Position numbers and translations under genes: made by a program. The notes below the pieces were generated by a model. The model made no database searches. It was not told the DNA's origin and saw nothing but the letters and a program-made list of their open reading frames with translations. DNA of 64,000 nucleotides from a virus: IMG/VR virus record IMGVR_UViG_3300046096_000525, positions 4,002 to 68,001 of that record. One strand, given 5' to 3'. This document shows, in pieces, positions 3,925 to 64,000 of the stretch (positions are counted from its first letter, which is position 1; every line of letters starts with the position of its first letter).

Positions 3925-3951
3925 AATTTGTGTGTTTTGGTTTTAGCTGCA

Positions 3952-3982: not shown

Positions 3983-4029
3983 AAGTTAAAAAAATAATTA
4001 ACAAATTTGGAAAATAGAATTATTATTTT

Positions 4030-4090
4030 TACCTTTGCAAAAAGTTTTTGACATTTTATTTTTTTTATTGAAATATTAGTTGTAACTTTG
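4030..4090 (+). promoter_or_regulatory. two rightward -7 boxes (TACCTTTG at 4030-4037, TAACTTTG at 4083-4090) upstream of candidate ncRNA
   Basis: Match to TAnnTTTG consensus seen 18+ times in window; -33 elements less clear here. Confidence 0.35.
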
Positions 4091-4099
4091 CAAAAATAA

Positions 4100-4360
4100 T
4101 TATAATGGCGTGTGGCTATCTGAAAAGATTCACGCTGAGGTAGAAATACCAATGCTCAATGGAAGAGGACATTACTGTTTGTAATGGAGACCGCCAGAGG
4201 ATGGCTAGTTAAGGTTCTAGCCAATACCACGTATGTAGATGAATAAATAAAATACTTCATCGAATAATCAATAAGGATTCCAGTGGTAAATCAAAAAAAC
4301 TTACAGCAGGTCTTTGGATTCGGTGTTTTTCCGCTGCTGGACTCTTTATCTTCTCTTATA
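4100..4360 (+). ncRNA. candidate small structured RNA in divergent intergenic region (locally GC-rich, several hairpins, no ORF longer than 20 codons)
   Basis: Hairpins GCGTG..CACGC (4108-4133), GGCTAG-TTAAGGTT-CTAGCC (4203-4222), CAGCAG..CTGCTG (4304-4340) followed by T-rich tract; located just downstream of -7 boxes; boundaries approximate. Confidence 0.25.
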
Positions 4361-4508: not shown

Positions 4509-4539
4509 TTTGTAGTCTCATATATTATTTGTAACTTTG
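4509..4539 (+). promoter_or_regulatory. sigma-A-type promoter TTTG(4509-4512)-N19-TAACTTTG(4532-4539)
   Basis: Consensus match; 14 nt upstream of helicase ATG at 4554. Confidence 0.55.
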
Positions 4540-5942: not shown

Positions 5943-5974
5943 TTTGCATATAATAAATATTTTTTGTACCTTTG
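5943..5974 (+). promoter_or_regulatory. sigma-A-type promoter TTTG(5943-5946)-N20-TACCTTTG(5967-5974)
   Basis: Consensus match upstream of recA ATG 5997. Confidence 0.55.
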
Positions 5975-5996: not shown

Positions 5997-6980
5997 ATGG
6001 CAGAAGAAAAAGATCCGTTATTAGATGTATTATCTAGCATGGATAAAAGATTTGGAAAAGGTGCTGTTATTGTTGGAGATACTGTTATTCAAACAGAACG
6101 GCAAAGCACTGGATCCCTAGGGGTTGATATAATCACCGGTGGTGGTTGGGGAAGAGGTAGAATGGTTGAGATATTTGGGCCAGAAAGTTCTGGAAAAACA
6201 ACCCTTTGTATCCATACAATGATACAAGCACAGAGGGATAACCCAAATAAAAGAGTTGCCTTTATAGATGCAGAGCACGCATTTGATAGAAACTACGCTG
6301 AACACCTTGGATTAGATATGTCACAAGTAATCATATCACAGCCAGATAGTGGAGAACAAGCGTTAGAAATTGCAGAAGCTTTGATAGCATCAGGTAAAAT
6401 TTCAGTTTGTGTGATTGATTCAGTTGCGGCACTTACACCAAAAGCAGAGATTGAAGGCGAGATGGGGGATTCTAAAATGGGATTACATGCTCGATTGATG
6501 TCACAAGCTTGTAGAAAGCTTACAGGAGTTGTTAATAAAACAAACACTGTACTTTTGTGGACAAATCAGATAAGAATGAAGATTGGAGTTATGTTTGGTA
6601 GCCCAGAGACAGTTCCAGGAGGAGAAGCACTTAAGTTTTACGCATCAACTAGGATTGATATTAGAAAGAGTGCTGGAGATAAAGATGATGCCGGAAATGT
6701 TATCAATAGCCACGTTAAGGTAAAGACTATTAAGAATAAGTTAGCACCGCCTTTCCAATTAACCACTTTTGATATAGTTTTTGGAGAAGGTATTGATAGA
6801 TCTAGTGAGATTTTAGCTATTGGAGAAAATCTTGGAATAATTGAGAAGAAAGGATCTTGGTTTAACTACGGAGAAACTAAGTTAGGACAAGGTGGAGGAA
6901 ACGTTAAGCAATTGCTAAAGGATAATCCAGAACTTTCTGAGGAGATAGAGGCTAAGATTAGAGAACACTTTAATATCTAG
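5997..6980 (+). CDS. recA: RecA-family recombinase
   Basis: EIFGPESSGKTT Walker A, AFIDAEHAFD, IDSVAALTPKAEIEGEMGD, LKFYASTRIDIRK match bacterial RecA signature regions over full length. Confidence 0.85.
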   Translation: MAEEKDPLLDVLSSMDKRFGKGAVIVGDTVIQTERQSTGSLGVDIITGGGWGRGRMVEIFGPESSGKTTLCIHTMIQAQRDNPNKRVAFIDAEHAFDRNYAEHLGLDMSQVIISQPDSGEQALEIAEALIASGKISVCVIDSVAALTPKAEIEGEMGDSKMGLHARLMSQACRKLTGVVNKTNTVLLWTNQIRMKIGVMFGSPETVPGGEALKFYASTRIDIRKSAGDKDDAGNVINSHVKVKTIKNKLAPPFQLTTFDIVFGEGIDRSSEILAIGENLGIIEKKGSWFNYGETKLGQGGGNVKQLLKDNPELSEEIEAKIREHFNI

Positions 6981-6982
6981 AT

Positions 6983-7444
6983 ATGTCAGTATTTAATTGG
7001 ATACATAATGGTCACGACATCAATAGTCTGCCAGATATGCAAAAACATTGCCCCAAAGTATGGGGCTTTGTTTACAAGCTAACGTTATATAAAAAAGGAA
7101 CACGAACTGTAGAGTTTGAGTACATTGGGAAAAAGAATGTGTACACAAAAAGGAAAAGAGTGTTTGGTAAAAAAGAAACAGCTGCCTTAAACGACAAAAG
7201 AAAAAAATCTTACGAGTACGTTATAAAGGAATCCGATTGGAAAAAGTATGTTTCTAGTAATAAGTTCATAAAAGCGAATAGTTCTCAGTTCGATATCTCA
7301 AGAGAGATTCTAACTTTTTGTACTAACGACTATGACTTAACATATCAAGAAGCAAAAGAGATTATTTGCTCCGGGGCCTTAGAAGATTGTAGGTTTTTGA
7401 ATGACGGAGTTTCGATTAGAAGATTTGGTAAAAAAATAATATAA
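6983..7444 (+). CDS. hypothetical protein; weak GIY-YIG-like motif (possible free-standing homing endonuclease between recA and phoH)
   Basis: WGFVYKLT...(15 aa)...EYIGKKNVYTKR resembles GIY-(x)n-YIG-(x)8-R; spacing longer than canonical, no conserved His seen. Confidence 0.4.
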   Translation: MSVFNWIHNGHDINSLPDMQKHCPKVWGFVYKLTLYKKGTRTVEFEYIGKKNVYTKRKRVFGKKETAALNDKRKKSYEYVIKESDWKKYVSSNKFIKANSSQFDISREILTFCTNDYDLTYQEAKEIICSGALEDCRFLNDGVSIRRFGKKII

Positions 7445-8152: not shown

Positions 8153-8184
8153 TTTGGTAGTTTAAAATATTTTTTGTACCTTTG
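8153..8184 (+). promoter_or_regulatory. sigma-A-type promoter TTTG(8153-8156)-N20-TACCTTTG(8177-8184)
   Basis: Consensus match; 20 nt upstream of small ORF ATG 8205. Confidence 0.5.
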
Positions 8185-10624: not shown

Positions 10625-12163
10625 ATGTTAAAAATAGGAAAAGAGGCAAAAGAATCTCTTATCAGGGGTATTAACGTAGTATCAGATGCAGTCAAGACAA
10701 CGATGGGGGCAGAAGGTAAGACAGTTATTATCGAGAATAAAATGGGATTCAAACCTCACATTACTAAAGATGGGGTAACAGTAGCCGAGAGTATCTTACT
10801 AGAAGATGCTTACGAAGAGATTGGTGCCAAGTTGATCAAAGAAGCCGCAAGAAGAACGGTTGATTTAGTAGGAGATGGTACAACTACAGCCACGGTTATC
10901 ACACAAGAGTTGATAAACAGAGGTTTAGAGAAACTAGAATCCGGAGTATCACACGTAGAGTTAAGAGAAGGTATGGCTATTGCAATCGAAGATGTAAAGC
11001 TTGCCCTGAAAGGCTTGAAGAAAGAGGTTGGTGAAAAAGAGGTAAAGCAAATAGCTACTATCTCTGCAAATAATGATGCCGTAGTAGGAGAAATTATAGC
11101 TGACGTATACAAGAAGATTGGCGTAGAAGGAACGGTTGATGTACAAGAAGGTGTAGCAAAAGACACTACAGTTAATTACATCGAAGGTATGTCACTAGAT
11201 AGAGGTTGGGCTTTGCCACACTTTGTATCTGACACAAGTACCGGAACAGCAGAACTTAATGACACTTATATCTTGATCTACGATGGTAAGATCAATGCAG
11301 TAAACGATATTGCAGAACACGTAAGAAAGGCCCAAACAGAAGGTAAAGGATTGCACATTTTTGCTGAAGATTTAGACGAAGGTGTTATGACAATGCTTGT
11401 CAAAAGTAAAATGCAAGGTACATTCAGAGTTACCGTTACTATGAACCCAGATTTTGGAACCAATAGAACTAGTATCTTAGAGGACCTAGCAATATTTACT
11501 GGAGGAGAAGTTTTCACGCCTAAGTTCTCTACAAAAGTAGTACTAGGACATGCTGCAAAAACAATCTCAGACAAAAGTAGAACAGTTATAATTACAGATA
11601 CCGGAAGCCAAGAGCTTTTAGACAGAATTGAAGTGTTAAAAACTCAAGTTGAGAACACAGAAGACGTTGTAGACAAAGCTAAACTGGTAAAAAGGTTGTC
11701 AAACTTGAGAAATGCCGTGGCTATTGTAACAGTTGGTGGAGTTACCGATCTTGAAGTTAAAGAAAAGAAAGATAGGATTGATGATGCTGTTAGTGCTGTA
11801 CGATCTGCACTAGAAGGTGGATTTGTTGCCGGTGGAGGATCAACTTTATTATATATTTCCAAGTACAAAATGAAGAAAAAGCTGAAAGGCGGCCAAAAAG
11901 ATGGATATGAGTTGTTGAAAGCAGCTATCCAGAAGCCTTTTGAGCAAATTTTGTTGAATGCTGGGTTAGACAAAGACAAATACGAGCCTAGACTTAGAGT
12001 TTACGGTAAAGGTATCAATGTCAAAACTAGAAAAGTAGAAAATTTACTAGAAAGAGGAGTTATTGACTCAGCTAAAGTAGTAGAAGTTTCTTTAGAGAAT
12101 GCTAATTCAGTAGCCTCACTAGTACTACAAACAGATTGTATAATCACAAGTGCCGGACTATAA
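10625..12163 (+). CDS. groEL: GroEL-like chaperonin (Cpn60 family)
   Basis: DLVGDGTTTATVITQ matches GroEL AGDGTTTATVLA motif; VAGGGSTLLY ~ GroEL VAGGG; length 512 aa with equatorial/apical layout; lacks GGM C-terminal repeat. Confidence 0.8.
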   Translation: MLKIGKEAKESLIRGINVVSDAVKTTMGAEGKTVIIENKMGFKPHITKDGVTVAESILLEDAYEEIGAKLIKEAARRTVDLVGDGTTTATVITQELINRGLEKLESGVSHVELREGMAIAIEDVKLALKGLKKEVGEKEVKQIATISANNDAVVGEIIADVYKKIGVEGTVDVQEGVAKDTTVNYIEGMSLDRGWALPHFVSDTSTGTAELNDTYILIYDGKINAVNDIAEHVRKAQTEGKGLHIFAEDLDEGVMTMLVKSKMQGTFRVTVTMNPDFGTNRTSILEDLAIFTGGEVFTPKFSTKVVLGHAAKTISDKSRTVIITDTGSQELLDRIEVLKTQVENTEDVVDKAKLVKRLSNLRNAVAIVTVGGVTDLEVKEKKDRIDDAVSAVRSALEGGFVAGGGSTLLYISKYKMKKKLKGGQKDGYELLKAAIQKPFEQILLNAGLDKDKYEPRLRVYGKGINVKTRKVENLLERGVIDSAKVVEVSLENANSVASLVLQTDCIITSAGL

Positions 12164-13707: not shown

Positions 13708-14394
13708 ATGATTAATATTTGGAAAGGTAAGAAATACCTAAAGTTAGAGCATTGTACATCCCCATGGTATACCACAAACAGAGGAAAAGACTTCTGCTTA
13801 AAGCATCATTTTACAGTATGGGGTTGGTCCCTAGCTACTAGAATGGTAAAGAGAGGATATAAAGAAGAGTACGTAAGAAAAGCAGAGTACGTATTTGGGC
13901 ATGTAAGTCCAGTACTTACTAAAAAGTATGATGCAGTAGATAAATATGAAGACCATCTAGACTTATTCTGCAAGACAGATTACCCAACACTGTACTGTTA
14001 CAATATTGAGGGAGATTTGCTAGGAAGAATAGACGACCTTAAGTGGATGTTCACCCATAACTGTGTAGCTGATAAAAATCTAGCAGGTGTGGCCTACTCT
14101 CAGACAGAGGGAGGATATATAGGATACTCACACAGAGCAAGACAAATATTCAAGATAGGGGACAAACTGTTTGACCCTAAGTACGAGCCACAAGAATTAG
14201 ACTATGAAGAGTGGGAGTGGGCAGGATTCTTACAAGACCAAGTAAGAGTACAGAAAGAGCATAACGATCTAGGAGAAGAGTACATTGTACCTATCAAAGA
14301 TGTAATACCTTTCAAGAAAAGAGGATCTGTACTTATCAAGACCCCTAAGGAAGCACGTAAAGCAGCACATAATTTCTCTAAGTATGTTAGCTAG
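13708..14394 (+). CDS. hypothetical protein (228 aa)
   Basis: ORF track. Confidence 0.5.
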   Translation: MINIWKGKKYLKLEHCTSPWYTTNRGKDFCLKHHFTVWGWSLATRMVKRGYKEEYVRKAEYVFGHVSPVLTKKYDAVDKYEDHLDLFCKTDYPTLYCYNIEGDLLGRIDDLKWMFTHNCVADKNLAGVAYSQTEGGYIGYSHRARQIFKIGDKLFDPKYEPQELDYEEWEWAGFLQDQVRVQKEHNDLGEEYIVPIKDVIPFKKRGSVLIKTPKEARKAAHNFSKYVS

Positions 14395-29468: not shown

Positions 29469-30284
29469 GTGAATAATTTTAGGAAACAAGTAGGAGCAGA
29501 TTCAATATATGTAGTGTCTTTAGCTAGGTTAACTAAAAGAAGAGAGCGAGTAAAGTTACTAGAGGAACAGCTAGATTGTGGTATTAATATAGTGGAGGCT
29601 TATGACCATGTAGATTATGAAAATGACTTAGACTTTATAGATAAACATCTATCAGATAAGTTTTTTGATCCGGCAGGTTATATAACACTAGGAGTATTAT
29701 GTTGTGCATTATCTCACAGAAAGGCTTGGAAACATTTTTTAGATTCAAAGGAGGAAGTAGGCTTATTTTTAGAGGATGATGTGTTTATCACAGACAATAT
29801 TAAAAAATACAACTTTGAAGAAATAAGAGCAGAGCTAGACAATTTAGATTGGGGTATTTGTTGGTATGGAAAGTACGCAGATGATATAGCTACTAGTAGA
29901 ATGTTGACAAGTAATATAGCAGAGCCGGTTCCACATTTCCCTCAGCAGTATGCCGCACACTCTTATTTACTTACAAGACAAAGTGCAAAGTGGCTCTATA
30001 AAAACACATCTAAGATTAAGTATGCAGCAGATGTACAATTAGAGATAATGCCTTTTAATCAAGTCTGTTTAACTAAGTCTATATTCAAGCAGTTTAAAAA
30101 TGAAGATAGGGTACCAACACTAAGCGAAGAGTTAACTATAAGTAATACCTTTTCTGAGTGGGATGAAGTAACGAGTTCTATTGTTAGAATACCTGAGAAC
30201 TTTATTAAAATGAAGTACTACCCTAAGAAGGTTATACACAATACAAGTATAGTTAATGGTTGGCAATTTGAAAAAATTAGATAA
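29469..30284 (+). CDS. glycosyltransferase family 25-like (LPS/glycan beta-glycosyltransferase type)
   Basis: N-terminal IYVVSLARLTKRRERV...EAYD resembles GT25 IYVINLxRSxxRR signature; DD acidic motif mid-protein. Confidence 0.65.
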   Translation: MNNFRKQVGADSIYVVSLARLTKRRERVKLLEEQLDCGINIVEAYDHVDYENDLDFIDKHLSDKFFDPAGYITLGVLCCALSHRKAWKHFLDSKEEVGLFLEDDVFITDNIKKYNFEEIRAELDNLDWGICWYGKYADDIATSRMLTSNIAEPVPHFPQQYAAHSYLLTRQSAKWLYKNTSKIKYAADVQLEIMPFNQVCLTKSIFKQFKNEDRVPTLSEELTISNTFSEWDEVTSSIVRIPENFIKMKYYPKKVIHNTSIVNGWQFEKIR

Positions 30285-30289
30285 GATTT

Positions 30290-30865
30290 ATGGAATATGA
30301 AATACAAGTACTATCTTTACAAAAGGACAAGGATAGAAGACAGCATACAAAAGAGGTAATGGATTCCCTAGGGTTGAATTATACTTTTTTTAATGCAGTT
30401 AAGCCTAGGGAAGTCACAAAAGACATGGAAGAAAGTTTGTTCAGTAAGGTAGACTATTACGACTGGGACATAGATCAGAAAGCCGTTATGGCTACGTTTG
30501 TCTCCCACTTAGCTTTACTTCATCTATCGTATAGTACTAAGTGTAACATGCTAGTATTAGAGGATGACATAGAATTAAGCGATTATGATTTTGATCTAAC
30601 TAATATAGATTTTACAACCTTTGATGTATTCAATTTAGGAACACAGATAAGCTGCTACGCATATTTTTTATCATGGCAAGGAGCAGGTAAGGTATTGGAT
30701 ATCCTCTTAAACAAAGAGATTATAAAAGCCTACGATTGGGAGTTGTGCGAGTTAGGATTACAAAATAAAATAAAGTACAAGACAACATCAAAACCTGTAT
30801 GGAAACAAGTAGATACATTCAAATCTAATATAGCACCAAATGGGTATAAACTTAAAAACAAATAA
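30290..30865 (+). CDS. second GT25-like glycosyltransferase (shorter paralogue)
   Basis: IQVLSLQKDKDRRQHTKEVMDSLGLNYTFFNAV parallels GT25 N-terminal signature; LEDDIE acidic motif. Confidence 0.5.
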   Translation: MEYEIQVLSLQKDKDRRQHTKEVMDSLGLNYTFFNAVKPREVTKDMEESLFSKVDYYDWDIDQKAVMATFVSHLALLHLSYSTKCNMLVLEDDIELSDYDFDLTNIDFTTFDVFNLGTQISCYAYFLSWQGAGKVLDILLNKEIIKAYDWELCELGLQNKIKYKTTSKPVWKQVDTFKSNIAPNGYKLKNK

Positions 30866-34691: not shown

Positions 34692-35504
34692 ATGAAGAAA
34701 GTTTTAGTATTGTTTTTAGGATTAGTATTAGCAATGGGTATTACCTCTTGCGAGAGAGTTGCTCCAAACTATTATGGAGTATTGATGGAAAATTATGGTA
34801 AGAATGGCAAGGATGACTATTCTAAACAGCAAGGTAGAGTATCTACAATTTCTCCTGGGACTGAGTTATTTCAAGTGCCGGCATGGGAACAACGTGGACA
34901 ATTCACTGACGATGAGGGTAGAGACAGAACATTACAAGTAAAAGCCGCTGATAACACAGCCTTTACGTCTAAGCCTTTGTACTCTTATAAAGTAATTCAA
35001 AGTAAAGTTGTAGATGTAGTATTTCAAAATTCAAGATTAGGATCAGGAGATGACTTTATGAGTGCCTTACAAGATAACGTATTGGAGCCAAGGATCTACG
35101 ATATTATAAAAGAAGCATCAAGAAGTTATACAACAGAACAATTAATGGCTAATGGAGGTTCACTAAGATTTGAGCAGTATGTTCAAAATATAGTAACAAA
35201 AGAGTTTGAAAAAGCAGGTTTAGAATTAATTAGTTTCAGCTTAAACCTTGACTTCTCTAGCAAAGTAAAAGCTAAGATTGATAGCCGTAATGAAGTAAAC
35301 ACAAACATTTCAGTTTTAGATCAAGAGATCGCAGAGCAAAAGAAGAAAAATGAGTTAGAGTTACTAAAAGCAGAGCAAAATAAAATTAGAAGTGGTGGTA
35401 TTACACCTCAGCTATTGCAAGAGCAAGCTATTAAAAAGTGGAACGGTAGATTGCCAAACACATACTCTGGAGGCTCGTTACCTTTTGTAAAAGCAGTTAA
35501 CTAA
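34692..35504 (+). CDS. SPFH/band-7 domain lipoprotein
   Basis: Lipoprotein signal MKKVLVLFLGLVLAMGITSC; central region and C-terminal coiled coil (EIAEQKKKNELELLKAEQNKI) fit stomatin/prohibitin-like architecture. Confidence 0.5.
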   Translation: MKKVLVLFLGLVLAMGITSCERVAPNYYGVLMENYGKNGKDDYSKQQGRVSTISPGTELFQVPAWEQRGQFTDDEGRDRTLQVKAADNTAFTSKPLYSYKVIQSKVVDVVFQNSRLGSGDDFMSALQDNVLEPRIYDIIKEASRSYTTEQLMANGGSLRFEQYVQNIVTKEFEKAGLELISFSLNLDFSSKVKAKIDSRNEVNTNISVLDQEIAEQKKKNELELLKAEQNKIRSGGITPQLLQEQAIKKWNGRLPNTYSGGSLPFVKAVN

Positions 35505-35589
35505 TAAAAGTATTTAAGATTCGAGGCTCAGTCAGTTGACTTGAGCACGCTACCTCGGACCTTGACAAGTGCCCCCACATGGGGGAAAT

Positions 35590-35746
35590 GATTGAGTGGC
35601 GGAATATGGCACTAGCTAAGGGTTTTACCGATAGCTAATGTCTTGGTAAACGCAAGGAGGGCAAAGAAGTTTGTACACAACTGCTGTGAGAGAGGATATT
35701 GCCTGTTGAACTCTCACATTTACAGGTTCGATCCCTGTCTCAATCA
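35590..35746 (+). ncRNA. tRNA-like element with 7-bp acceptor stem (GATTGAG/CTCAATC), canonical T-arm ACAGG-TTCGATC-CCTGT, but ~110-nt insertion containing several hairpins
   Basis: Read by eye; internal hairpins TAGCTA..TAGCTA, TCTTG-GTAAACG-CAAGG, GTGAGAG..CTCTCAC; too long for a canonical tRNA. Confidence 0.3.
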
Positions 35747-35783
35747 CGAAATGATTTGTTGATATATTATTGAAATTGAACAA

Positions 35784-35813
35784 GACGGGGCTTCGATGCC
35801 CCCACCTCCACAA
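35784..35813 (+). ncRNA. ssrA: putative tmRNA acceptor piece 3' module (T-arm GGGGC-TTCGAT-GCCCC + acceptor 3' strand CACCTCC + discriminator A)
   Basis: GACGGGGCTTCGATGCCCCCACCTCCA parallels the conserved tmRNA 3' end (E. coli GGACGGGGGTTCAACTCCCCCCAGCTCCACCA); true 5' boundary of the acceptor piece (P2 partner TTATTG ~35770) uncertain. Confidence 0.45.
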
Positions 35814-35880
35814 AAGTTTCCTTGAACTATAAACAAGGTGGTGGAGTCGCTGAGAAATCAGAGACCTAGGCTTTATCGGT

Positions 35881-35896
35881 TGTGCCTTAAACAGCC
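35881..35896 (+). repeat. 16-nt repeat TGTGCCTTAAACAGCC (copy 2; copy 1 at 14836-14851) inside the presumptive excised loop of the permuted tmRNA precursor
   Basis: Exact repeat. Confidence 0.6.
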
Positions 35897-35904
35897 GGTG
35901 TCAT

Positions 35905-36046
35905 GGGGGTGACAGGTATTGATTGGCAATAAGTAGGTAATAGGGAGAATTAATTTCAAAACTAAACGACAACGTTTACACACTTGGTGGGGTGCAAAAA
36001 AGATTTGCAGCCTAACACGCCTTAGGGGAGCGAAATCCCCTAAATT
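35905..36046 (+). ncRNA. ssrA: putative tmRNA coding piece: 5' acceptor strand GGGGGTG (pairs 7/7 with CACCTCC incl. G3-U70), tag reading frame 35944-36015 (GELISKLNDNVYTLGGVQKRFAA-stop), 3' hairpin GGGGA-GCGAAA-TCCCC
   Basis: 5' end GGGGGTGACAGGTATTGATTGG resembles tmRNA 5' GGGGCUGAUUCUGGAUUCG; tag frame opens right after a UAG, begins GE (as Bacteroidetes tags GENNYALAA) and ends AA; CAATAAG complementary to upstream TTATTG (P2-like). Confidence 0.45.
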
Positions 36047-36120
36047 GGACTTATAGCTCAGTTGGTTAGAGCAGTGCACTCATAATGCAAAGGTCGTATG
36101 TTCGAGTCATACTTGGTCCA
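36047..36120 (+). tRNA. tRNA-Met (or Ile2) with CAU anticodon, 74 nt, no encoded CCA
   Basis: Manual cloverleaf: acceptor GGACTTA/TTGGTCC (one T-T mismatch, one G-U), D-arm GCTC-AGTTGGTTA-GAGC, anticodon arm GTGCA-CTCATAA-TGCAA, T-arm GTATG-TTCGAGT-CATAC, discriminator A. Confidence 0.7.
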
Positions 36121-36267
36121 CTTAGCAAGGCATAAACGATAAGGAATACTCGTCACAGGTTTATGTTAAGTTGCAGACGGGCCGAAATGCTTACGGTTAA
36201 CGGGGCTAACTCATATAGTCCAGAGAGCAAAATCTAACGAGTGACTGATAGGAAAGACTATCAAAAT

Positions 36268-36370
36268 TGTCAGGTGGCGGAATTGGTAGACGCAGGAGTC
36301 CTCAAAACTCCCCGTAAGATGCAGCGAGAGCTTTGACCATCTCATACAGGTTCGAGACCTGTCCTGACAA
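36268..36370 (+). tRNA. tRNA-like gene (Leu-type D-arm TGGCGGAATTGGTAGACGC) with anticodon arm GGAGT-CCTCAAA-ACTCC (UCA at 34-36, C33) and 34-nt variable region; possible opal-suppressor-like or degenerate class II tRNA
   Basis: Acceptor TGTCAGG/CCTGACA perfect 7 bp, T-arm ACAGG-TTCGAGA-CCTGT, discriminator A; oversized variable region and C33 are atypical. Confidence 0.35.
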
Positions 36371-36548
36371 CAATGGTTATGAGCAACGTGCCCCAGAATT
36401 TCACAATGTTGACTGATGGAAAGACATCAAATGGAAGAGTAGCAGATAAGGTCGCCCCTGAACTGTGAGTGGGATTAATGATGACTTAATATTACTGCCC
36501 AATATACTAGGTAAAGCATGGTAAGTGATTAAGTATGTAGTTAACATC

Positions 36549-36573
36549 GAAGGTTCGATTCCTTCCTCTTTTA
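36549..36573 (+). other. tRNA 3'-end-like module (T-arm GAAGG-TTCGATT-CCTTC + CTCTTTT + A); possible partner GGAAGAG at 36433-36439 would give a 141-nt element
   Basis: Canonical T-loop; 5' half not confidently identified. Confidence 0.25.
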
Positions 36574-36615
36574 CTAAAGTTAAAAAAATTTTATTGAAAA
36601 AAAGATTTAACTAAT

Positions 36616-36646
36616 TTTGTTTTACAGAATTAATTTATTATCTTTG
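36616..36646 (+). promoter_or_regulatory. sigma-A-type promoter TTTG(36616-36619)-N19-TATCTTTG(36639-36646)
   Basis: Consensus match upstream of nrdB ATG 36727. Confidence 0.55.
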
Positions 36647-36726: not shown

Positions 36727-37704
36727 ATGAGTATCTTCACAGAAAGAAAGAATTACAAGCCGTTTGAGTACAGCGGAATTACAGACCCACTTATCAATGC
36801 AATGTGGTCTAGTCATTGGACACACAATGAGTTTAACTTCTTGAATGACATTCAAGACTACAAGACAAAGTTAACAGAGGAAGAACAAGGAGTAGTTAAA
36901 AGAGCCATACTACTTACCTCACAAGTAGAGGTTGCAGTTAAGTCTTATTGGTCGAGTATAGGTAAACTGTTACCTAAGCCAGAGATAGCAGACATGGGGG
37001 CAGTGTTTGGCGGAGTAGAAGTAGTACACTCAAAAGCTTATGCGGAGATTTTGTCTAAGCTAGGATTAGAAGAGCAGTTTGAAGATCTTTTTACAGAGCC
37101 GGTAATTGTAGGTAGAGTAGCTTATTTAACTAAGTACATCAACAAGATCTATAAGAATGACCACAAAAATATTTGTTATTCTTTAGTACTATTCACTTTG
37201 TTTACTGAGTACACAGCTTTATTTTCACAGTTCTACACTATCCTAGGGTTTAACAGATTTAGAGGAGTTTTGAAAGATGTAGCAAATGTTGTTCAATACA
37301 CTTCAAAAGAAGAGAATTTACACGCAGAAGGTGGTATTGCATTATTAAACCAAATTAGAGCAGAGCATCCAGAGTTATTTGATGAAGAGTTCATACAAAA
37401 AATACAAAGCGAAGTTCTAGAGGCATACAAAGCTGAGTCAGATTTGATTGATTGGATCCTAGAGGGTTACGAAAATGATTTCTTATCAGCAAGAATATTA
37501 AAAGGTTACGTTCAAATAAGATTAAACGATGCTTTACAAAAGATTGGAATGGAACCGGCTTTCACAGTAGACTCTGATATTAAAGAGCAGACACTATGGA
37601 TGGAAGAAGAGGTTTACGCAAGTGCCTTGACAGACTTCTTTCACAAGAAGCCTATTGATTACAGTAAGAAAATGAAAACATATAACGAAGACGATTTATT
37701 TTAA
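36727..37704 (+). CDS. nrdB: ribonucleotide reductase class I small subunit (R2/beta)
   Basis: Di-iron ligand regions VEVVHSKAYAEIL and SKEENLHAEGG; C-terminal tail ...YNEDDLF typical of R2 docking peptide; 325 aa. Confidence 0.8.
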   Translation: MSIFTERKNYKPFEYSGITDPLINAMWSSHWTHNEFNFLNDIQDYKTKLTEEEQGVVKRAILLTSQVEVAVKSYWSSIGKLLPKPEIADMGAVFGGVEVVHSKAYAEILSKLGLEEQFEDLFTEPVIVGRVAYLTKYINKIYKNDHKNICYSLVLFTLFTEYTALFSQFYTILGFNRFRGVLKDVANVVQYTSKEENLHAEGGIALLNQIRAEHPELFDEEFIQKIQSEVLEAYKAESDLIDWILEGYENDFLSARILKGYVQIRLNDALQKIGMEPAFTVDSDIKEQTLWMEEEVYASALTDFFHKKPIDYSKKMKTYNEDDLF

Positions 37705-50672: not shown

Positions 50673-51040
50673 TGGAGTACACAAACATAAACGAAGAGTT
50701 AGAGGATTGGAAAAATTCTTGGCGAGAAAGTAAGTTTATATCTGCTATGAACGAGAAGCAAAGACAAAAGGATTTTCGTGAAGGTTATATGAGAGGTTTT
50801 AAGATGGCTACAATGATATCAGATAAGAAAAATCTAGATATGATAGTTAATAGTTTAGACTCTGGGTTATTGAATGAAATGATAGCCTATGCTGATAGAG
50901 AGAAAGAAGAAGTAACAAGAGTTGAAGTAATACAACATTCTGAGCCACACAATGGAAGAGCTTATACCAACTACAACGCTAAAGATGTTGAAGTACAATA
51001 CCAAGATGGTGGTAAAACATTAAAAATATTTTGTAAGTAA
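50672..51040 (+). CDS. hypothetical protein (122 aa)
   Basis: ORF track. Confidence 0.45.
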   Translation: MEYTNINEELEDWKNSWRESKFISAMNEKQRQKDFREGYMRGFKMATMISDKKNLDMIVNSLDSGLLNEMIAYADREKEEVTRVEVIQHSEPHNGRAYTNYNAKDVEVQYQDGGKTLKIFCK

Positions 51041-51528
51041 TGATAGTAGAAAATTGGTTGCCAGTAAAAGATTATGAGGGTTTTTATGAAGTCTCAGATT
51101 TAGGTAGAGTTAGAAGTCTTAGGTTTGGTAAGGTTAAGATAATGAAACAAAGTCTTAGCTCAAATAAGTACTTAATTGTTAACTTATGGAATGATAAAAA
51201 AATGAAGAGTTATAGTGTTCATATCTTAGTAGCAAGTGCTTTTTTAGGGCATGTACCAAATGGTCGTATTACAGTTGTAAACCATATTAATTTTGATAGA
51301 CTTGATAATAGATCGGTAAATTTAGAGGTAATATCATTTAGAGAAAATGCTAATAAAAAACACTTACCTTCTACAAGTAAGTACACAGGTGTTTATTGGA
51401 ATAAAGCTTCACGTAAGTGGGTGTCACGTATTTCTATTTGTGGAAGAGTTAAGTATTTAGGAAGGTTTACTACAGAGCTAGATGCTCACTACGCATACGA
51501 AGAGGAATTAGCAAAAATAACAAAATAA
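51040..51528 (+). CDS. HNH homing endonuclease (NUMOD4 + HNH_3 type), free-standing, immediately upstream of DNA polymerase
   Basis: WLPVKDYEGFYEVSDLGRVRSL (NUMOD4 Y-x-VS-x-G-x-VRS), HILVASAFLGHVPNGRITVVNHINFDRLDNRSVNLEV (HNH_3 H...NH...N..NL). Confidence 0.7.
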   Translation: MIVENWLPVKDYEGFYEVSDLGRVRSLRFGKVKIMKQSLSSNKYLIVNLWNDKKMKSYSVHILVASAFLGHVPNGRITVVNHINFDRLDNRSVNLEVISFRENANKKHLPSTSKYTGVYWNKASRKWVSRISICGRVKYLGRFTTELDAHYAYEEELAKITK

Positions 51529-58290: not shown

Positions 58291-61200
58291 TTAATATTCT
58301 GCTGCCCATCCACCTGGCTTAAGATCATCTTCATCTATAAGGTAAGCCACTGGTATAAGAGCTTCATCTTTATTAAAGTAATCGTATGTCTCTCTCAAAG
58401 AGTTCAAATTACCTGCGTTCCAGATATCAAATGTAGGTTTTGCTCCAACAACATTCTTTAAGAAATAAACTTGTTGATTTGTCATCCCTGAAAATCTACC
58501 ACTTTTTACTACGTCTGTATCAAATGCTTGAGTAACCTTAAATAAGTTCTCTAACTTTTGAACCCCTACTAGAGGTTCTTTTACAGAAGCATAAAACTCT
58601 CCAAAAACACCTAGTTGAGTAGAAGATGTCTCTGTGGTAACCCTCTCTAACATATAAGCTGAGAATTGAGCTGCCCACATATCTTCTTCATCATCTGCCC
58701 AGTGCCCTAACCCTAATGTTAGCAAGAACAATAATGTAAGGAAGTTAAAGTCAACAAGGATTCTTCTAATATTTTCTCTTTGTACTTCGTCTCCATTAAC
58801 GTACTGATCCTTTAACTCAGCTAAAGCGGCTTTCATACCACCTTTTTTCAAACCGTTGTTGAAGTTCTCTACAACAAAATTATATAAAGAGTAGTAAGTA
58901 CCCTCTTCCATTTGTCCTGTCTGTAGATTTAAGTGTCTTCTTTTAAACCTGTTTGCTGCAGAAATTGCTAACCAACCTTTATGTGTCATTGCAAATCTTC
59001 CAAGAACGTCTCTTTGCATACTCGTTCTTTCTTCGTTGGTAATCATACCATCTATTCTCTCTACAACTTTCTTAAGTTTATTAGCTACTCCTAACTCCAT
59101 GTTTCTAAAGTCTTCTTTGAACTTGTCATCGTTAACTCTATTCATATCTTCTGCTAATCTGTCATAATCATAAGACACTGAAGCCTCATCTGTTATTAAG
59201 TAGTTATAAAAAGATTTATCAGCAAGAAGCTCCCATTGATTTTTTACATCCTTTATAGTAGCAGATGGGTTAGACCTTTTGTACAACTTTTCAAACTGTT
59301 TGAAATCTGCTAATCCTCCCTCATATACTCTGTGACCATATAACTGTGACAACATTGCTTTTGATAGTGGCACAAAGTTACCTGCGGTATGTAAAATATA
59401 CATGGATTTTGCAAGTACTCTTGGTGCTTTTGCATACATAGAGTTTTCAAATCTATTGCTCAGTTCAAATATGTTGAAGTGTTCTCCCAACATAGAAAGC
59501 CTTGATTTAGAATCAATCTCTAAGTTCTCTTTTATGGCCGGGTAAGATATTTTTAAAAACTCTTTCCCTGCTAAGCTAACTGAATTTTTATCTACGTACT
59601 GTCCTACATACTTCTCTATAAGAAGAGAGGCTTCAGCTGTAGCCCATGAAGTAACTGGTACAACAAAGTTCAATGCCAAAGAGTTATTTCGGATCCATCC
59701 GTGTAATACATTCACAACTTTTGTTACATCTATCTGTCCTAGTACTGGTACATTTACTCGCCAGTTTCTCTTTTCTTTTACCCCAAATAAATTATGGTCG
59801 TAGTAAGATTGAAACATCTTGTAAGTATTTGTAGATGTAGCTGCTTTACCTTCAGGATAAGCTCTGTTTAAAGCTAAATCATTAAGGGTAGCAAACTCAG
59901 AGTATCTCTCTTTTCTAGCCTTATATAATTGTGATTGTTGAGCTAGTAACATAGAACTGTAAAAAAGATCCGTAGATACATCTGTAGGCTCTTCTAGTTT
60001 CTTTAAGAAGTACTTTGGTACGATTCTCATATCAGCAGTCTTTGCTAATGCTTCCCCATCCAACTCCTCTCCAAAGGCTTGTTCGTCTACTCTAAATCTA
60101 ACAATATCTCTCCACCATTCTTTTATCGTACCTTTTTTACCTTTCAGCAAATCGTTAGTTTTTTCAAGACTAGTTTTCGATACTTGTGGAGCTAGGTATA
60201 AATTGTGTGTCCCTAATTCACCGTAAGATCTTAAACTCTCTTTTTGAAACTCTATGTACTCATCGTACAAAGCAAATAATTTCTGGTTGCTAGTAGCTTG
60301 TATTTTACCATTGCTATCTAAGATAGGATTGTTATTGCTATCTAGGATAGGGTTGAACAATCTTACAAACTCTTTGTTAAGATATTGATCAAGTTTTGGT
60401 TGCTTAGAACCACCCTCGAAATCTTCTTTATAGTTAGGGTTTTTGAATTTAATCTCCCCCATCTCGTAGTAAGAAAAATTGTTACTTACTTTTATGTCTG
60501 TTCTTTCATTTAGTTGTTTAACTAAAGTAGAGACATCTTGTGTACCATTTTTCAAAGAGTTGTAAAAGCTCTCTAATCCAAGAGGTGCAAAAGACTTATA
60601 GTAAGGTGCCAATTTAGACTCTGCATACTTTAATTTTGCTGTTATTATGTCATCTTCATTCAACTCAGATAGGTCATTAATACCTACTGTTCTTAGTATT
60701 AAGTTTCTATGACTCTCAGATACCCTTCTTCCTCTAACTGCATCATCTAAAGCATCTGCAAATTGTCTAGCTTTCTTAATGTTGTCTACAGTCATGTTTT
60801 TCAATGCAAACTCATACTTAGCCTCTGGCTTTGTAATTCTACCATCTTCTAGAGCTTGATAGTAAGCTTGGTTTGGTGTAGACTCTGCTATTACCGTTCT
60901 TTCTGAATCCTGCTCTACATTATTCTTGAATATTGTGTAAAGCTCTGAAGATATTCTGTCTATGTCTTCTGACAACTCAATAACCTTGGCTCTTTGTTGA
61001 TCAGACATCTCTTCAGCCATAGTGTTAGTATAGTTTCTAGAGTCTTGGTATTGCTTTAATATAGCTTTTCTGTTATCTAGAAACTCTTTGTATGCTTTTA
61101 TTTTATCAGACCAAACTTCTTCTGCATCTGGTCTTTGACTGTATGAGTCTAAGAAAGTCATCATACTTTCAGAGTTATCAAAGTTGTTCCAGAAGTCGTT

Positions 61201-64000
61201 AGAAAAACCTATGCTTGAATTCAATGTAAAGAATTCTACTGCTGCTTCTCTTCCCTCTTCTTTTTCAATTCTGTTTAACTCTTCCAAAAATTTAGGTGCA
61301 AGTTTCTCTACATCTATTTTTTGGCCTCCTGCTTGTCGTGCCTCTTCTTGCTTCTCAGCTAAGAACGCTTGATCTAATTTGTTTAGTTCAAAAGCTATTC
61401 TAGACTCTTCGTTTGCATTAGGTCTAAGTTCAAAATATGATCCATTCACTTCTATTGAAGTACTTGATGGTGAGTCTACCGGTCTTATACCAGTTTTTAG
61501 ATCCCCCAAACTATCATGTAAAGACTTTAAGGCCTTTCTTTTCAAGTTTATTGCATCTAACTCATATTTATTTTGAGCTGTATATCTAGGTAATCCTTTT
61601 TCATTCTTTACTCTAGACATAAGGCTACCTAAGTCTACAGACAATAATTTAAGGTGTGTTTTTGTAGCCTCACTTATACCTAATCTATTGTATTTATCTT
61701 CTCTTCCTTGGTAGTATTCCTCAGTAAAGCTTCTTTCTATCTTAGAATTAACTGCATCATTAACTTCTTTTGTATAAGCTTTTTCTGCATCTTCATCTTC
61801 AATTTTTGGTAAGTTGTATTCTTTTATACCTTTCTTAATAGCCTCATCAGACATAGTTGTACCAGAATACTTTTTATAAGCCTCTAGTTTTAAGTTCAAT
61901 ACATCCTCTTCAAAAGCTGTAAAATCGTATGCACTCAGGATGTAACCATCTTTGTCCATAAGTTTAGGCAAGTCAGACTCTGTAAAACCAAGCTCACGTA
62001 TTTTTGCTTGAAACTCCTTAGCTCTTTTTAAATAACTGTGTTCTGCATCAAGTGTCATATCAGCAATAACACTACCTAATATGTTTAGTAATGGATCGTG
62101 TGCGTGGGTAATTTGACCAAAAACAGCATACAACATTTGTGTATCTCTTGTAGCAACAAGTACTGCATCTTTTAATTTATCCCTTACATCTTCGTCTAAT
62201 CTATGTCTAACCATTAAACGGTCTATAATTCTATCAAGTACATCATTCTGTACATTCTTAGCGGCTCCGGTTACAGCTAAAACTTTTGTGCTTACTGCTT
62301 CAATGTCTGTTAAGATGTCTGCCAAATCTGTATCCTCTTTAGCTAAAGCTGATAACCTAGATAAAATAGGTACAATTTGTTCTGTCAAACCTTTAAGTAC
62401 TATACCTTCTTCATTTGATAAAGTTTCCCCTCTCTTTTTTGAAGTTTCGATAGCCGTTGAAACGTAGTCTGCTTGTCTTTTTGCCAAGGCTACAAGGTCT
62501 AGTATTGAGCTTTTTGTAATAGCTTTTTCTAGAGTCTCATTTAACATTTGAATACCTGCACTAGATCCTCTACCTGCTTTTCTAAGACTTTTTTCTTGTT
62601 CTAATAAAGACTTTACTAATTTCTTAACAATAGCATTTTTGGTATCTATAACTACATTACCACTAGCTTGTTGCTGATACATTCTAAAAGTCTTAGTCTT
62701 AGCTTTATCTAAGTTCAAATACTTATTCACATCCTTTGTTAACAGCAAGTCCTCCACTTTCAATGTTAATGCCTCTAAGTCTGAATAGAATGTATCGTTT
62801 GCAACCACTGAGTCAAAAAACTTTCTTAATAATTCAAAAAGTCTTCCTACTATGCTTTTTTGGGTTTCTGTTTTACCCTCTGTATTAAATCTTTCTTGTA
62901 TAGCTTTTGCTAATTCCTTACCTAATAGCTCTCTTCTAACCAAGTTCTCTACTTGTTCAGCAGACATACCTGGATTTTCTCTTGTGTATAACTCTCTGTA
63001 TGATTGAGAGAACTCTACATAAGAACTAGTTTTGTGTATATTTCTTAGTAAGTTTTCAATTTCTGCATCATCCCAAGTCTCTACAATAAAGTGTGAAGTC
63101 TCTTCTGTAAGAGAGTCTATAGAAATAAGACCGTCCTTAAAAGCTATAACTTGTTCAGCTACATCTAAAAGGGCTCTGGCCGATGGATCTACACCGTTTC
63201 TTGTGTTGTAGTTACTAACGTAGCTAGCGATAGAAGTTACTTTAACTCCCATACCGTTTAGTAAATCCAATAAGTTAAGTTTAAGAGCTTCTTCTGTAGC
63301 TGTCATAGTTTCTGAACTTACTCCAGAAGGTAGTGCCTCAGAGACTGCATTGTTGATAATCAGCTCCAAAGCATCCTCTTTACTCATAGATTTTTCTAAC
63401 TCTCTCAAAGACATAGTTCTCAACTCTTCAACAGGCATGTCTTTACCATTTACTTCTATGGTATTCTTCTTGTTGATAAGTTCAATTCTACCGTCTTTAT
63501 AGATCTTAAAGTTTTTTCTATTTAGATTGGTTTTGGCCTCCTCTTTTATAATCTGCTCATTCGCTATTTGTAACGGTGCATGGTTACCTGCTGCCTTGTG
63601 GTAAGTCAGCCCGTCTTCAATAATCTTTTCATCTGATAAAATATCGCTTTTTATCAAGTTGTTTATGAACCCTTCGTAAGTTGCTGGGTTTGTGTTAGAT
63701 GACACAGATAATAAGGTTTTGAAACCTGCATCTGTATCTATACCTATTTCTATATTTCCTCCGGAAGAGTCAGCTAAAGCCTCTTTGAAAGACTCTAATT
63801 TGGCTCCTTTATCTGATAAGAAAGAGATAGGATTTTGCTCATTTATTTTTTCTGAATAAACATTCTTAAAAATAGACAAAGCTTCTTCTAAACCTCCAAC
63901 ATGTGGTAGTCTAGCTATCTGCTTGAATAGTCTACTTTCGTTACCTTCTAGGTCAAGAACGTTTTTTATACTACCATTCTCATTATATTTAATCGTACAG
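58291..64000 (-). CDS. giant virion-associated protein (>1900 aa; N-terminus lies beyond window end), largely alpha-helical/coiled-coil with one C-terminal hydrophobic segment
   Basis: ORF track gives 1862 aa from TTG at 63879, but my minus-strand read shows the frame stays open upstream through 64000 (...CTIKYNENGSIKNVLDLEGNESRLFKQIARLPHVGGLEEALSIFKN...); the TTG start is an artefact. No polymerase/ATPase motifs found. Confidence 0.7.
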   Translation of the reverse strand, partial: CTIKYNENGSIKNVLDLEGNESRLFKQIARLPHVGGLEEALSIFKNVYSEKINEQNPISFLSDKGAKLESFKEALADSSGGNIEIGIDTDAGFKTLLSVSSNTNPATYEGFINNLIKSDILSDEKIIEDGLTYHKAAGNHAPLQIANEQIIKEEAKTNLNRKNFKIYKDGRIELINKKNTIEVNGKDMPVEELRTMSLRELEKSMSKEDALELIINNAVSEALPSGVSSETMTATEEALKLNLLDLLNGMGVKVTSIASYVSNYNTRNGVDPSARALLDVAEQVIAFKDGLISIDSLTEETSHFIVETWDDAEIENLLRNIHKTSSYVEFSQSYRELYTRENPGMSAEQVENLVRRELLGKELAKAIQERFNTEGKTETQKSIVGRLFELLRKFFDSVVANDTFYSDLEALTLKVEDLLLTKDVNKYLNLDKAKTKTFRMYQQQASGNVVIDTKNAIVKKLVKSLLEQEKSLRKAGRGSSAGIQMLNETLEKAITKSSILDLVALAKRQADYVSTAIETSKKRGETLSNEEGIVLKGLTEQIVPILSRLSALAKEDTDLADILTDIEAVSTKVLAVTGAAKNVQNDVLDRIIDRLMVRHRLDEDVRDKLKDAVLVATRDTQMLYAVFGQITHAHDPLLNILGSVIADMTLDAEHSYLKRAKEFQAKIRELGFTESDLPKLMDKDGYILSAYDFTAFEEDVLNLKLEAYKKYSGTTMSDEAIKKGIKEYNLPKIEDEDAEKAYTKEVNDAVNSKIERSFTEEYYQGREDKYNRLGISEATKTHLKLLSVDLGSLMSRVKNEKGLPRYTAQNKYELDAINLKRKALKSLHDSLGDLKTGIRPVDSPSSTSIEVNGSYFELRPNANEESRIAFELNKLDQAFLAEKQEEARQAGGQKIDVEKLAPKFLEELNRIEKEEGREAAVEFFTLNSSIGFSNDFWNNFDNSESMMTFLDSYSQRPDAEEVWSDKIKAYKEFLDNRKAILKQYQDSRNYTNTMAEEMSDQQRAKVIELSEDIDRISSELYTIFKNNVEQDSERTVIAESTPNQAYYQALEDGRITKPEAKYEFALKNMTVDNIKKARQFADALDDAVRGRRVSESHRNLILRTVGINDLSELNEDDIITAKLKYAESKLAPYYKSFAPLGLESFYNSLKNGTQDVSTLVKQLNERTDIKVSNNFSYYEMGEIKFKNPNYKEDFEGGSKQPKLDQYLNKEFVRLFNPILDSNNNPILDSNGKIQATSNQKLFALYDEYIEFQKESLRSYGELGTHNLYLAPQVSKTSLEKTNDLLKGKKGTIKEWWRDIVRFRVDEQAFGEELDGEALAKTADMRIVPKYFLKKLEEPTDVSTDLFYSSMLLAQQSQLYKARKERYSEFATLNDLALNRAYPEGKAATSTNTYKMFQSYYDHNLFGVKEKRNWRVNVPVLGQIDVTKVVNVLHGWIRNNSLALNFVVPVTSWATAEASLLIEKYVGQYVDKNSVSLAGKEFLKISYPAIKENLEIDSKSRLSMLGEHFNIFELSNRFENSMYAKAPRVLAKSMYILHTAGNFVPLSKAMLSQLYGHRVYEGGLADFKQFEKLYKRSNPSATIKDVKNQWELLADKSFYNYLITDEASVSYDYDRLAEDMNRVNDDKFKEDFRNMELGVANKLKKVVERIDGMITNEERTSMQRDVLGRFAMTHKGWLAISAANRFKRRHLNLQTGQMEEGTYYSLYNFVVENFNNGLKKGGMKAALAELKDQYVNGDEVQRENIRRILVDFNFLTLLFLLTLGLGHWADDEEDMWAAQFSAYMLERVTTETSSTQLGVFGEFYASVKEPLVGVQKLENLFKVTQAFDTDVVKSGRFSGMTNQQVYFLKNVVGAKPTFDIWNAGNLNSLRETYDYFNKDEALIPVAYLIDEDDLKPGGWAAEY

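Follow-up and report, generated by a model that had tools for sequence, protein, structure and literature searches.

Tightly packed tRNA-shaped RNAs, a two-piece tmRNA and a double-pseudoknot RNA in a probable stable-RNA island of an apparent Bacteroidota phage

The gap between the SPFH/Band-7 gene (34692-35504) and nrdB (36727-37704) in the IMG/VR virus record IMGVR_UViG_3300046096_000525 spans 1,222 bp and holds no credible open reading frame (ORF). We describe it here as a cluster of stable-RNA genes, lying end-to-end on the + strand, in which a canonical tRNA is accompanied by three tRNA-shaped modules (A, B and C), by a two-piece transfer-messenger RNA (tmRNA) and by an RNA with two pseudoknots (D). 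We demonstrate below which elements are present, how they are structured and conserved, and how exactly they adjoin; their coordinates are collected in Table 1. The window analysed is a stretch of 64,000 nucleotides (nt), positions 4,002 to 68,001 of that record, and positions are counted from its first letter; labels of the form L001 denote other contigs or loci, cited with their own coordinates.

Results

The island and its setting

The source is a phage of about 127 kb, and its host clade appears to be Bacteroidota. This setting is indicated by the nearest cultured relatives according to the SPFH protein, which are phages of Bacteroides and Phocaeicola, together with promoters of the Bacteroidota type (TTTG-N18-22-TAnnTTTG), found 12 times on the + strand of the window for 0.9 expected and mostly just upstream of genes. 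Examples of these promoters lie at 4509-4539, 5943-5974 and 8153-8184, and several share an extended TTTGGTAGTT... -33 region. The island sequence is 100% identical between two independent Joint Genome Institute (JGI) assemblies, one of them a contig of 126,746 bp; when it was compared with GenBank phages, the tRNA with anticodon CAU was the sole match.

That tRNA (36047-36120) is also the sole one found by ARAGORN at default settings and by Rfam at its gathering threshold, in line with the first-pass annotation, made from the sequence alone, according to which no other segment folds as a normal tRNA. The wider proposal of that annotation, a non-coding RNA-gene island with one normal tRNA and several oversized tRNA-like elements, is borne out by ARAGORN, by Rfam and by our own scanner, which accepted only sites where a 5-bp T stem closes a TTCRA loop and where strands 66-260 nt apart form an acceptor stem of 7 perfect pairs. 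The scanner returned exactly three more matches in the island (35590-35745, 36268-36369 and 36433-36572, all on the + strand), one match elsewhere in the window and a mean of 0.83 per 128 kb in shuffled sequence. These three are modules A, B and C, each with a perfect acceptor stem and a T arm. The matching acceptor strands and T arm already noticed for A were thus recovered, and the "lone" T arm reported at 36549-36573 proved to belong to a complete module, C, its 3' strand CTCTTTT pairing with GGAAGAG at 36433-36439. All five T arms of the first description are present, the fifth (35787-35802, followed by CACCTCC-A at 35803-35810) being the acceptor piece of a permuted tmRNA instead of part of a further tRNA; the two-piece tmRNA itself and the conserved RNA D had been missed.

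Every element of the island has a discriminator A followed by C, encodes no CCA and abuts the next element; A adjoins the tmRNA acceptor piece, and the tmRNA coding piece adjoins the CAU tRNA. The latter may be a tRNA-Met or a lysidine-containing tRNA-Ile2, which is made plausible by AUA codons being as common as AUU in the genes of the window (27 per 1000). Two antisense ORFs (35625-35813 and 35873-36079) had been taken for shadows, rightly so since they overlap conserved and covarying RNAs and relatives have indels in this region whose lengths are not divisible by three. The leader that precedes A is 91% identical in L077 and identical in L268/L269, where it stands upstream of their A-position element. 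It is a candidate promoter or 5' leader of A; no Bacteroidota-type promoter was found within 35505-35589. Thermodynamic folding did not discriminate the other elements, the z-scores of A, B, C and D lying between -1.9 and +0.8. No target antisense to the bodies of A, B, C or D rose above shuffled expectation in the window, and the 50 window ORFs scanned yielded no SmpB, CCA-adding enzyme, aminoacyl-tRNA synthetase, RNA ligase or integrase.

Table 1. Elements of the RNA island and their positions in the window
Element	Position	Strand	Features and basis
Leader preceding A, two hairpins (second: CCCCCACATGGGGG)	35505-35589	+	folding z = -3.0
Module A, 157-nt tRNA-shaped RNA	35590-35746	+	scanner; fold
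tmRNA acceptor piece	35747-35810	+	5' extension forms a P2 strand; RF04321; covariation
tmRNA T stem, 6-nt loop	35787-35791/35798-35802	+	covariation in 7-8 homologs, also of the acceptor stem and P2
tmRNA 3' acceptor strand CACCTCC	35803-35809	+	discriminator A at 35810; CCA not encoded
Segment between the tmRNA pieces, 94 nt	35811-35904	+	homolog alignments
tmRNA coding piece	35905-36046	+	5' acceptor strand GGGGGTG (35905-35911); D-loop analogue; P2 strand
tmRNA tag frame	35968-36015	+	DNVYTLGGVQKRFAA plus TAA
tmRNA 3' hairpin	36022-36043	+	stem covaries; ends three bases before the CAU tRNA
Canonical elongator tRNA, anticodon CAU	36047-36120	+	ARAGORN; Rfam tRNA model, 64.9 bits
D RNA, 147 nt	36121-36267	+	two H-type pseudoknots, CCG/CGG hairpin, terminal hairpin
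D terminal hairpin with GGAAAGAC loop	36244-36267	+	
Module B, 103-nt tRNA-shaped RNA	36268-36370	+	ortholog alignment
Spacer and second copy of the D terminal hairpin (36410-36432)	36371-36432	+	alignment with relatives
Module C, 140-nt tRNA-shaped RNA	36433-36573	+	scanner; five orthologs
nrdB promoter TTTG-N19-TAtcTTTG	36616-36646	+	right-hand limit of the island

Modules A, B and C

None of the three modules is matched by the general tRNA models (ARAGORN at default settings; Rfam tRNA, RF00005, at E<=10). B has the acceptor stem TGTCAGG/CCTGACA, A73, a Leu-type D arm and a 5-bp arm closed by the loop CCUCAAA, in which position 33 is C, as was first described, along with an extra arm of 34 nt that contains a GNRA hairpin. 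A metagenome scan with the body of B yielded 12 distinct orthologs in unrelated genomic contexts, 11 of which were aligned. The 28 pairs of the structure are 99.7% paired in this alignment versus 30-41% in slid controls, and double changes affect 6 of the 7 acceptor pairs; one ortholog has an entirely different stem, GACCGAG/CUCGGUC. Pairing so far above the controls, with double changes, indicates that B is a real structured RNA. Its loop reads C/U-C-N-C-A-A-A across orthologs, with C33 fixed and position 34 occupied by U in the window only, by G in 8 orthologs and by C in 3. The orthologs share just the module with about 5 nt on either side, their flanks being unrelated, and B is absent from the closest relatives of the phage. 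Indeed, L001, L003 and L013 align contiguously to 36121-36267 and 36410-36590 with a 24-nt overlap, and B with the following spacer is a window-specific insertion of about 142 nt, flanked by the duplicated hairpin. An exact search for the arm of B in viral contigs gave chance matches within unrelated coding genes only.

Module A combines the acceptor stem GATTGAG/CTCAATC, A73 and the T arm ACAGG-TTCGATC-CCTGT with a Leu-type D arm split by a hairpin of roughly 34 nt, and it has no anticodon arm. At the same position, relatives keep the frame GATTGAG/CUCAAUC around elements of very different length (75 nt in L268/L269, 121 in L126, 147 in L004). ARAGORN called A at relaxed thresholds only, as a tRNA with a "79-nt intron"; relaxed-threshold calls were mutually inconsistent, included spurious tmRNAs and were not used as evidence. 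Module C, with the acceptor stem GGAAGAG/CTCTTTT, a T arm at 36549-36565 and A73, has a conserved 5' domain (about 48 nt) that probably forms a pseudoknot, a variable middle and no anticodon arm; it lacks alanine identity, since its third pair is A3-U70. Its five orthologs display covariation at acceptor pair 5:68 (G-C and A-U), at two T-stem pairs (A-U and G-C) and in the 5' stem (GCAG/CUGU and GUAG/CUAC). They are restricted to the five phages of the clade with permuted tmRNA, where C occupies the slot of the relatives' standard tmRNA. A loose pattern derived from C gave 69 matches, the real ones being only the 5 modules already known.

A family of handles with interchangeable bodies

Modules related to A and B were collected from syntenic and pattern-derived loci; the size of the family is a lower bound. 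We obtained 235 distinct modules with an acceptor stem within one mismatch of AGUCAGG. They share a handle, made of the acceptor AGUCAGG/CCUGACU, A73, a T arm and usually a Leu-type D arm, and carry unrelated structured bodies in place of the anticodon region; their lengths vary continuously between 61 and 310 nt (median 103). A 5-bp arm with a 7-nt loop occurs at the anticodon position in 27 of the 235, about 16 being expected by chance, and such an arm with U33 and a purine at 37 occurs in 1 of 235 versus 149 of 200 ordinary tRNA-sized modules from the same loci. Bona fide tRNA-Leu genes of these loci, with acceptors starting GCC or GGC, have normal arms. In an unbiased test, where the 5' and 3' halves were located independently (n=139), 130 acceptor stems were fully paired, 107 were exactly AGUCAGG/CCUGACU and 133 modules had A73.

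The bodies fall into 191 unrelated clusters, 163 of them singletons, with compensatory changes within clusters. The 25-nt 3' frame was found in more than 120 viral contigs (a lower bound), versus 14 contigs among 185,579 species genomes, all of them from metagenome-assembled genomes of scattered taxonomy, so that the family is phage-borne and distinct from host tRNA-Leu. The modules behave as cassettes, as judged from the length swaps at the A position and from B orthologs that share little beyond the module. No partner protein recurs beside the arrays, the best protein family being present at 15 of 140 loci. Hairpin insertions in the D loop recur in the family: a member of L252 (3296-3438, 143 nt) has one when compared with its 113-nt orthologs (L117 1702-1814), and the insertion of module A (35606-35641) is of the same kind.

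The two-piece tmRNA

In the stretch 35747-36046 a T arm and 3' acceptor strand come first, then a spacer, then the 5' acceptor strand and the tag, which is the gene order of a permuted tmRNA. The Rfam model tmRNA_permuted (RF04321) matches 35754-36015 with 51.1 bits for a gathering score of 47, and it scores 57-65 bits in homologs from related contigs, above threshold in three relatives. ARAGORN calls permuted tmRNAs in L003, L001 and L077, with the tags DNVYQLGGVQRRFAA, DNVYQLGGVQLRAVA and GDVYQLGGVQLRAVA. No 3' strand matching the 5' acceptor strand was found downstream of it by the scanner. The stem GGGGGUG/CACCUCC provides the pair G3:U70, which is retained in all 8 homologs, even where pair 5:68 is A-U instead of G-C. 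Across 7-8 homologs P2 covaries, and compensatory changes are seen at four of the five T-stem pairs (GGGGC/GCCCC, GGGAG/CUCCC, CCGAG/CUCGG, CCGGG/CCCGG). The last Ala codon of the tag is GCC, GCG, GCT or GCA depending on the homolog, and the tag of L013 has an in-frame 3-nt deletion; the use of all four Ala codons, together with this deletion, indicates a translated tag whose frame is under coding constraint. The tags end in RFAA, RAVA, RIAA or RSAA followed by the stop, that is, in Ala-Ala or a hydrophobic end.

A canonical 7-nt T loop with flanking pseudoknots was not seen. The T loop of the window copy has 6 nt (UUCGAU), the tag is followed by a hairpin with no pseudoknots, which counts against full tmRNA function, and the L126-type sub-lineage has a non-canonical T loop (GGCAGAG) and a D loop without GG. 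These traits lower our confidence in full function; the assignment nevertheless stands because reduced tmRNA forms are known from organelles (PMC11915505). The Rfam permuted model is recent (PMC11915505). Between the two pieces, the first ~55 nt or so of the intervening segment (35816-35870) are invariant in all 8 homologs though the functional stems vary, and a 29-mer of this segment occurs in 7 viral contigs. The invariant part resembles the post-tag element of standard tmRNAs in sister phages (TTTC-hairpin-TGGTGGAaTCG-hairpin-GACC), and its placement is not as a simple circular permutation predicts.

At this locus sister phages have a standard one-piece tmRNA, and its acceptor stem is likewise GGGGGUG/CACCUCC. 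This argues for a separate permutation event inside the phage lineage and suggests that the tmRNA permutation arose there. The standard forms lie at L004 5910-6237, L008 5189-5524, L012 5445-5849, L014 5566-5903, L107 3196-3518 and L006 5429-5801; one-piece tmRNAs of related phages have unusually long tags, for example ANAQIEANMNKVFSLLREEVAVAA, of up to 29 residues.

The double-pseudoknot RNA D

D is nearly invariant across relatives, and a 20-mer of it occurs in 21 viral contigs, some of 343-373 kb. Its 30 pairs are 99.8% paired versus 25-38% in slid controls, with 8 compensatory pairs, four of which belong to one pseudoknot stem. Among 19 distinct copies, 17 are not cut by a contig end, and 15 of these start one base after a tRNA-type T arm, acceptor strand and discriminator; the terminal hairpin is followed by the 5' end of either a tmRNA or a tRNA-like module. 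D has no Rfam match at E<=10, and searches of the window at the gathering threshold and at E<=10 returned neither GOLLD nor ROOL. Two other views of these sequences were discarded. One made D the spacer within a permuted tRNA-like gene, but the flanking acceptor strands are not consistently complementary. The other took D or the module bodies for short coding frames or tags, but the candidate ORFs are not conserved (AUG-CAG... of B reads AUG-UAG in orthologs, and a 1-nt indel puts D out of frame). In L117, a GOLLD RNA (3644-4051, 299 bits) lies ~1.8 kb downstream of an AGTCAGG-type array with D, and in L147 a tRNA array contains a near-threshold match to the freshwater-1 RNA (4124-4186, 70.1 bits for a gathering score of 72).

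Other genes in the window

A candidate anti-defence gene (13708-14394, +) encodes a 228-aa protein that is matched by the Pfam model of the type I Thoeris inhibitor Tad6 (E = 1.2e-13). Two putative homing endonucleases are encoded, one SegE-like of the GIY-YIG type between recA and phoH (6983-7444, +), the other with NUMOD4/HNH/AP2 domains (51040-51528, +), ending two bases before the family A DNA polymerase gene. The window also encodes a full-length RecA (5997-6980, +) and a GroEL/Cpn60-family chaperonin (10625-12163, +). Two adjacent genes at 29469-30865 (+) match glycosyltransferase family 25 (lipopolysaccharide biosynthesis) and may be a split or duplicated gene. An ORF of 1,862 aa (58291-63879, -) has no Pfam match, and a scanner match at 63771-63917 inside it is most likely due to chance.

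Discussion

Taken together, these results probably describe a stable-RNA island that is cut into separate RNAs: tRNA-shaped modules that do not decode, a two-piece tmRNA and D. That A, B and C do not decode codons is almost certain, as the arm of a decoder (5 bp, 7-nt loop, U33, purine 37) is missing from A and C, and B has C33.

The first-pass annotation had considered B as a possible UGA-reading suppressor. On that account B, perhaps with its relatives, would be a functional suppressor or unusual decoder, a Leu-type tRNA with anticodon UCA, and it does show the geometry of a four-armed tRNA, UCA at 34-36 of a 7-nt loop, A37, A73 and a Leu-type D arm; its arm is conserved and covarying, bacterial leucyl-tRNA synthetase (LeuRS) recognises its substrate independently of the anticodon, and TGA is a rare stop, ending 3 of 51 long ORFs. 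A decoder, however, would conserve its anticodon and have the near-universal U33, whereas C33 is invariant here and position 34 drifts among 12 orthologs of ~90% identity, which in a decoder would mean that a Leu-type body reads a stop codon in one case and Cys or Trp codons in others. Nor do the genes call for a suppressor: those of the window, 64 kb of ~127 kb, are intact under the standard code (code 11), phage genes interrupted by in-frame stops of that type were not found, counting TGA as a sense codon raises ORF coverage marginally, from 0.765 to 0.815, and two of the three TGA stops stand at ATGA gene overlaps. The Rfam tRNA model does not match B, and the closest relatives do without it; we consider a suppressor most unlikely. 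It is scarcely credible, too, that A, B and C are tRNA genes from which introns or insertions are spliced out to leave normal tRNAs, as had also been proposed. Group I introns are known in bacterial tRNA-Leu, and the ARAGORN intron options can force B into a tRNA(CAU) with a 10-nt intron and A, at a relaxed score, into a tRNA-Lys with the 79-nt intron, but the two models are mutually arbitrary. Most bodies (about 20-220 nt, mostly under 120 nt) fall short of the size of a group I intron, and the Intron_gpI model matches neither the island at E<=10 nor 8 module-rich loci at E<=0.1. Most family members, even those of normal length (61-76 nt), have no anticodon arm that splicing could restore, and bodies that are unrelated between members, yet conserved and covarying within orthologs, fit a functional RNA and not an excised spacer.

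Decaying tRNA pseudogenes, or attachment-site and recombination scars with no RNA function, would account for the continuous body lengths, for the swapping of bodies among close relatives, for the location of B within an insertion flanked by a duplicated hairpin, and for the broken 3' acceptor strand of the L343 ortholog of B. This explanation, which the first reading had put forward as degenerate or attP-like fragments, is very unlikely, given that acceptor and T stems are kept paired by compensatory changes, that bodies covary, that the exact frame recurs in more than 120 viral contigs and that C is conserved in five phages; moreover, the modules are complete with both acceptor strands and are not 3' fragments, and the 50 ORFs scanned yielded no integrase. 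A different possibility, unlikely in our view, is that the handle is the functional part, the modules being leucine-accepting or enzyme-binding tRNA mimics that titrate a host factor, with bodies that tune or diversify the interaction. The target of such decoys, with the same limited likelihood, could be LeuRS, EF-Tu, a tRNA-modifying enzyme or a defence toxin acting at the acceptor end or T loop. In line with this, the conservation of A73, of the Leu-type D arm and of the acceptor-stem sequence far exceeds the needs of pairing, some members are scarcely more than a handle (61-75 nt), there are many copies per genome (up to six in 2 kb), the high turnover and cassette mobility resemble arms-race loci, and a Tad6-like anti-Thoeris protein is encoded in the same window. 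Charging or binding is nonetheless conjectural, some members have non-Leu D arms, the acceptor stem of C is different and A/U-rich, and the conservation and covariation of the bodies imply that these matter in their own right.

From a mechanistic point of view, the stable-RNA island may work as follows, co-transcription, processing enzymes, charging and the roles of the bodies and of D being what we infer. The island would be transcribed as one or a few precursors punctuated by tRNA-type structures, host RNase P would cut at each tRNA-type 5' end and host RNase Z after each discriminator A, and a CCA-adding enzyme would then supply CCA, which no element encodes. The expected products are A, the two tmRNA pieces (~64 and ~142 nt), the CAU tRNA, D (147 nt), B and C, the ends of D being set by the cuts of the neighbouring tRNA-type elements. 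The tmRNA would be charged with alanine by the host alanyl-tRNA synthetase via G3:U70 and, with host SmpB (presumed, as none was found among the window ORFs scanned), would rescue stalled ribosomes by adding the tag (A)DNVYTLGGVQKRFAA. The top half of the modules (acceptor and T arm, with the Leu-type D arm in A and B) may serve as a handle for the maturation and stability of the body, a different structured one in each module, which stands where a tRNA has its anticodon domain.

Several observations weigh against this picture. No convincing sigma-70 or Bacteroidota-type promoter lies directly upstream of the island, and co-transcription with RNase P and RNase Z processing is deduced from geometry alone. 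In every ortholog of B the arm retains the correct geometry of 5 bp and a 7-nt loop, which leaves some possibility of an anticodon-arm-like role. The tmRNA copy of the window, with its T loop of 6 nt in place of 7, is not called by ARAGORN and could be impaired, and the invariant segment between its pieces does not fit a simple excised spacer. Lastly, sequence conservation of the acceptor stem, beyond pairing, would be unexplained if the handle served processing only; it hints at a further specific partner, or at leucylation.

We tentatively go one step further and propose, as a joint reading to which we give nearly even weight, that A and B belong to an undescribed and widespread class of phage RNAs, with a conserved handle, hundreds of bodies at the anticodon position and exchange as cassettes, acting as leucine-chargeable mimics or as a natural tRNA scaffold for the maturation, stabilisation or delivery of diverse effector RNAs, next to a new RNA, D, and an independently split two-piece tmRNA. 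Our search of the literature found no existing description of the handle family, and both this family and D appear undescribed in Rfam 15 and the searchable literature. If this is true, phage tRNA islands would hide a large population of non-decoding tRNA-shaped RNAs that standard annotation misses or mislabels as odd tRNAs or suppressors, which would bear on claims of phage code switching based on predicted suppressor tRNAs. Handles with interchangeable bodies, as well as D, would be concrete candidates for phage-host interactions of a new, RNA-based kind, and the engineered tRNA scaffold would have a counterpart in nature. There would be a further, phage-internal origin of two-piece tmRNA, and the presence of standard and permuted forms at one locus in sister phages would offer a natural system for the study of tmRNA permutation.

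Comparison with known systems

To our knowledge, the tmRNA of Bacteroidota is one-piece. Two-piece tmRNAs occur in Alphaproteobacteria, some Betaproteobacteria, Cyanobacteria and marine phages such as Melnitz and the pelagimyophages (PMC9004378, PMC11915505), so that two-piece tmRNAs as such are not new to phages, most of the known cases being marine (PMC9004378), and the gene described here is a new variant. It resembles the known forms in the order of acceptor piece, intervening segment and coding piece, in G3:U70, in a tag ending in AA plus stop and in its match to RF04321. It differs from them in its Bacteroidota-type setting with one-piece forms at the same locus in sister phages, in having no post-tag pseudoknots, a shortened or non-canonical T loop and an invariant intervening segment, and in being bracketed by a tRNA-like RNA and a tRNA.

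The arrangement also recalls tRNA punctuation, by which polycistronic transcripts are divided in animal mitochondria and in synthetic arrays of tRNA and guide RNA. As in those systems, tRNA-shaped elements abut non-tRNA RNAs, here D and both tmRNA pieces; unlike them, many of the punctuating elements are non-decoding and have bodies of their own, arrays also occur with nothing between the modules, and the processing of the island is predicted.

GOLLD and ROOL are structured non-coding RNAs of phage tRNA islands whose function is unknown (PMC12286853). D is likewise structured, pseudoknotted and embedded among phage tRNA genes, but it is only ~147 nt long, has its own fold, matches no Rfam family and is separate from GOLLD in L117.

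Lastly, mascRNA, the tRNA-miRNA units of MHV68 and the stable "species 1/2" RNAs of the T4 tRNA cluster are tRNA-like structures that keep the acceptor/T-arm half. Those at the 3' end of plant-virus RNAs keep it as well (PMC4810235). What these structures, including the tRNA-like domain of tmRNA, share with the modules of the island is a top-half handle for RNase P, RNase Z and the CCA-adding enzyme on a non-tRNA body, with aminoacylation in some cases and with elements located within a viral tRNA cluster. In contrast to them, the phage family combines one sequence-conserved handle with at least 191 unrelated bodies, extends over hundreds of phage contigs and behaves as a mobile cassette.

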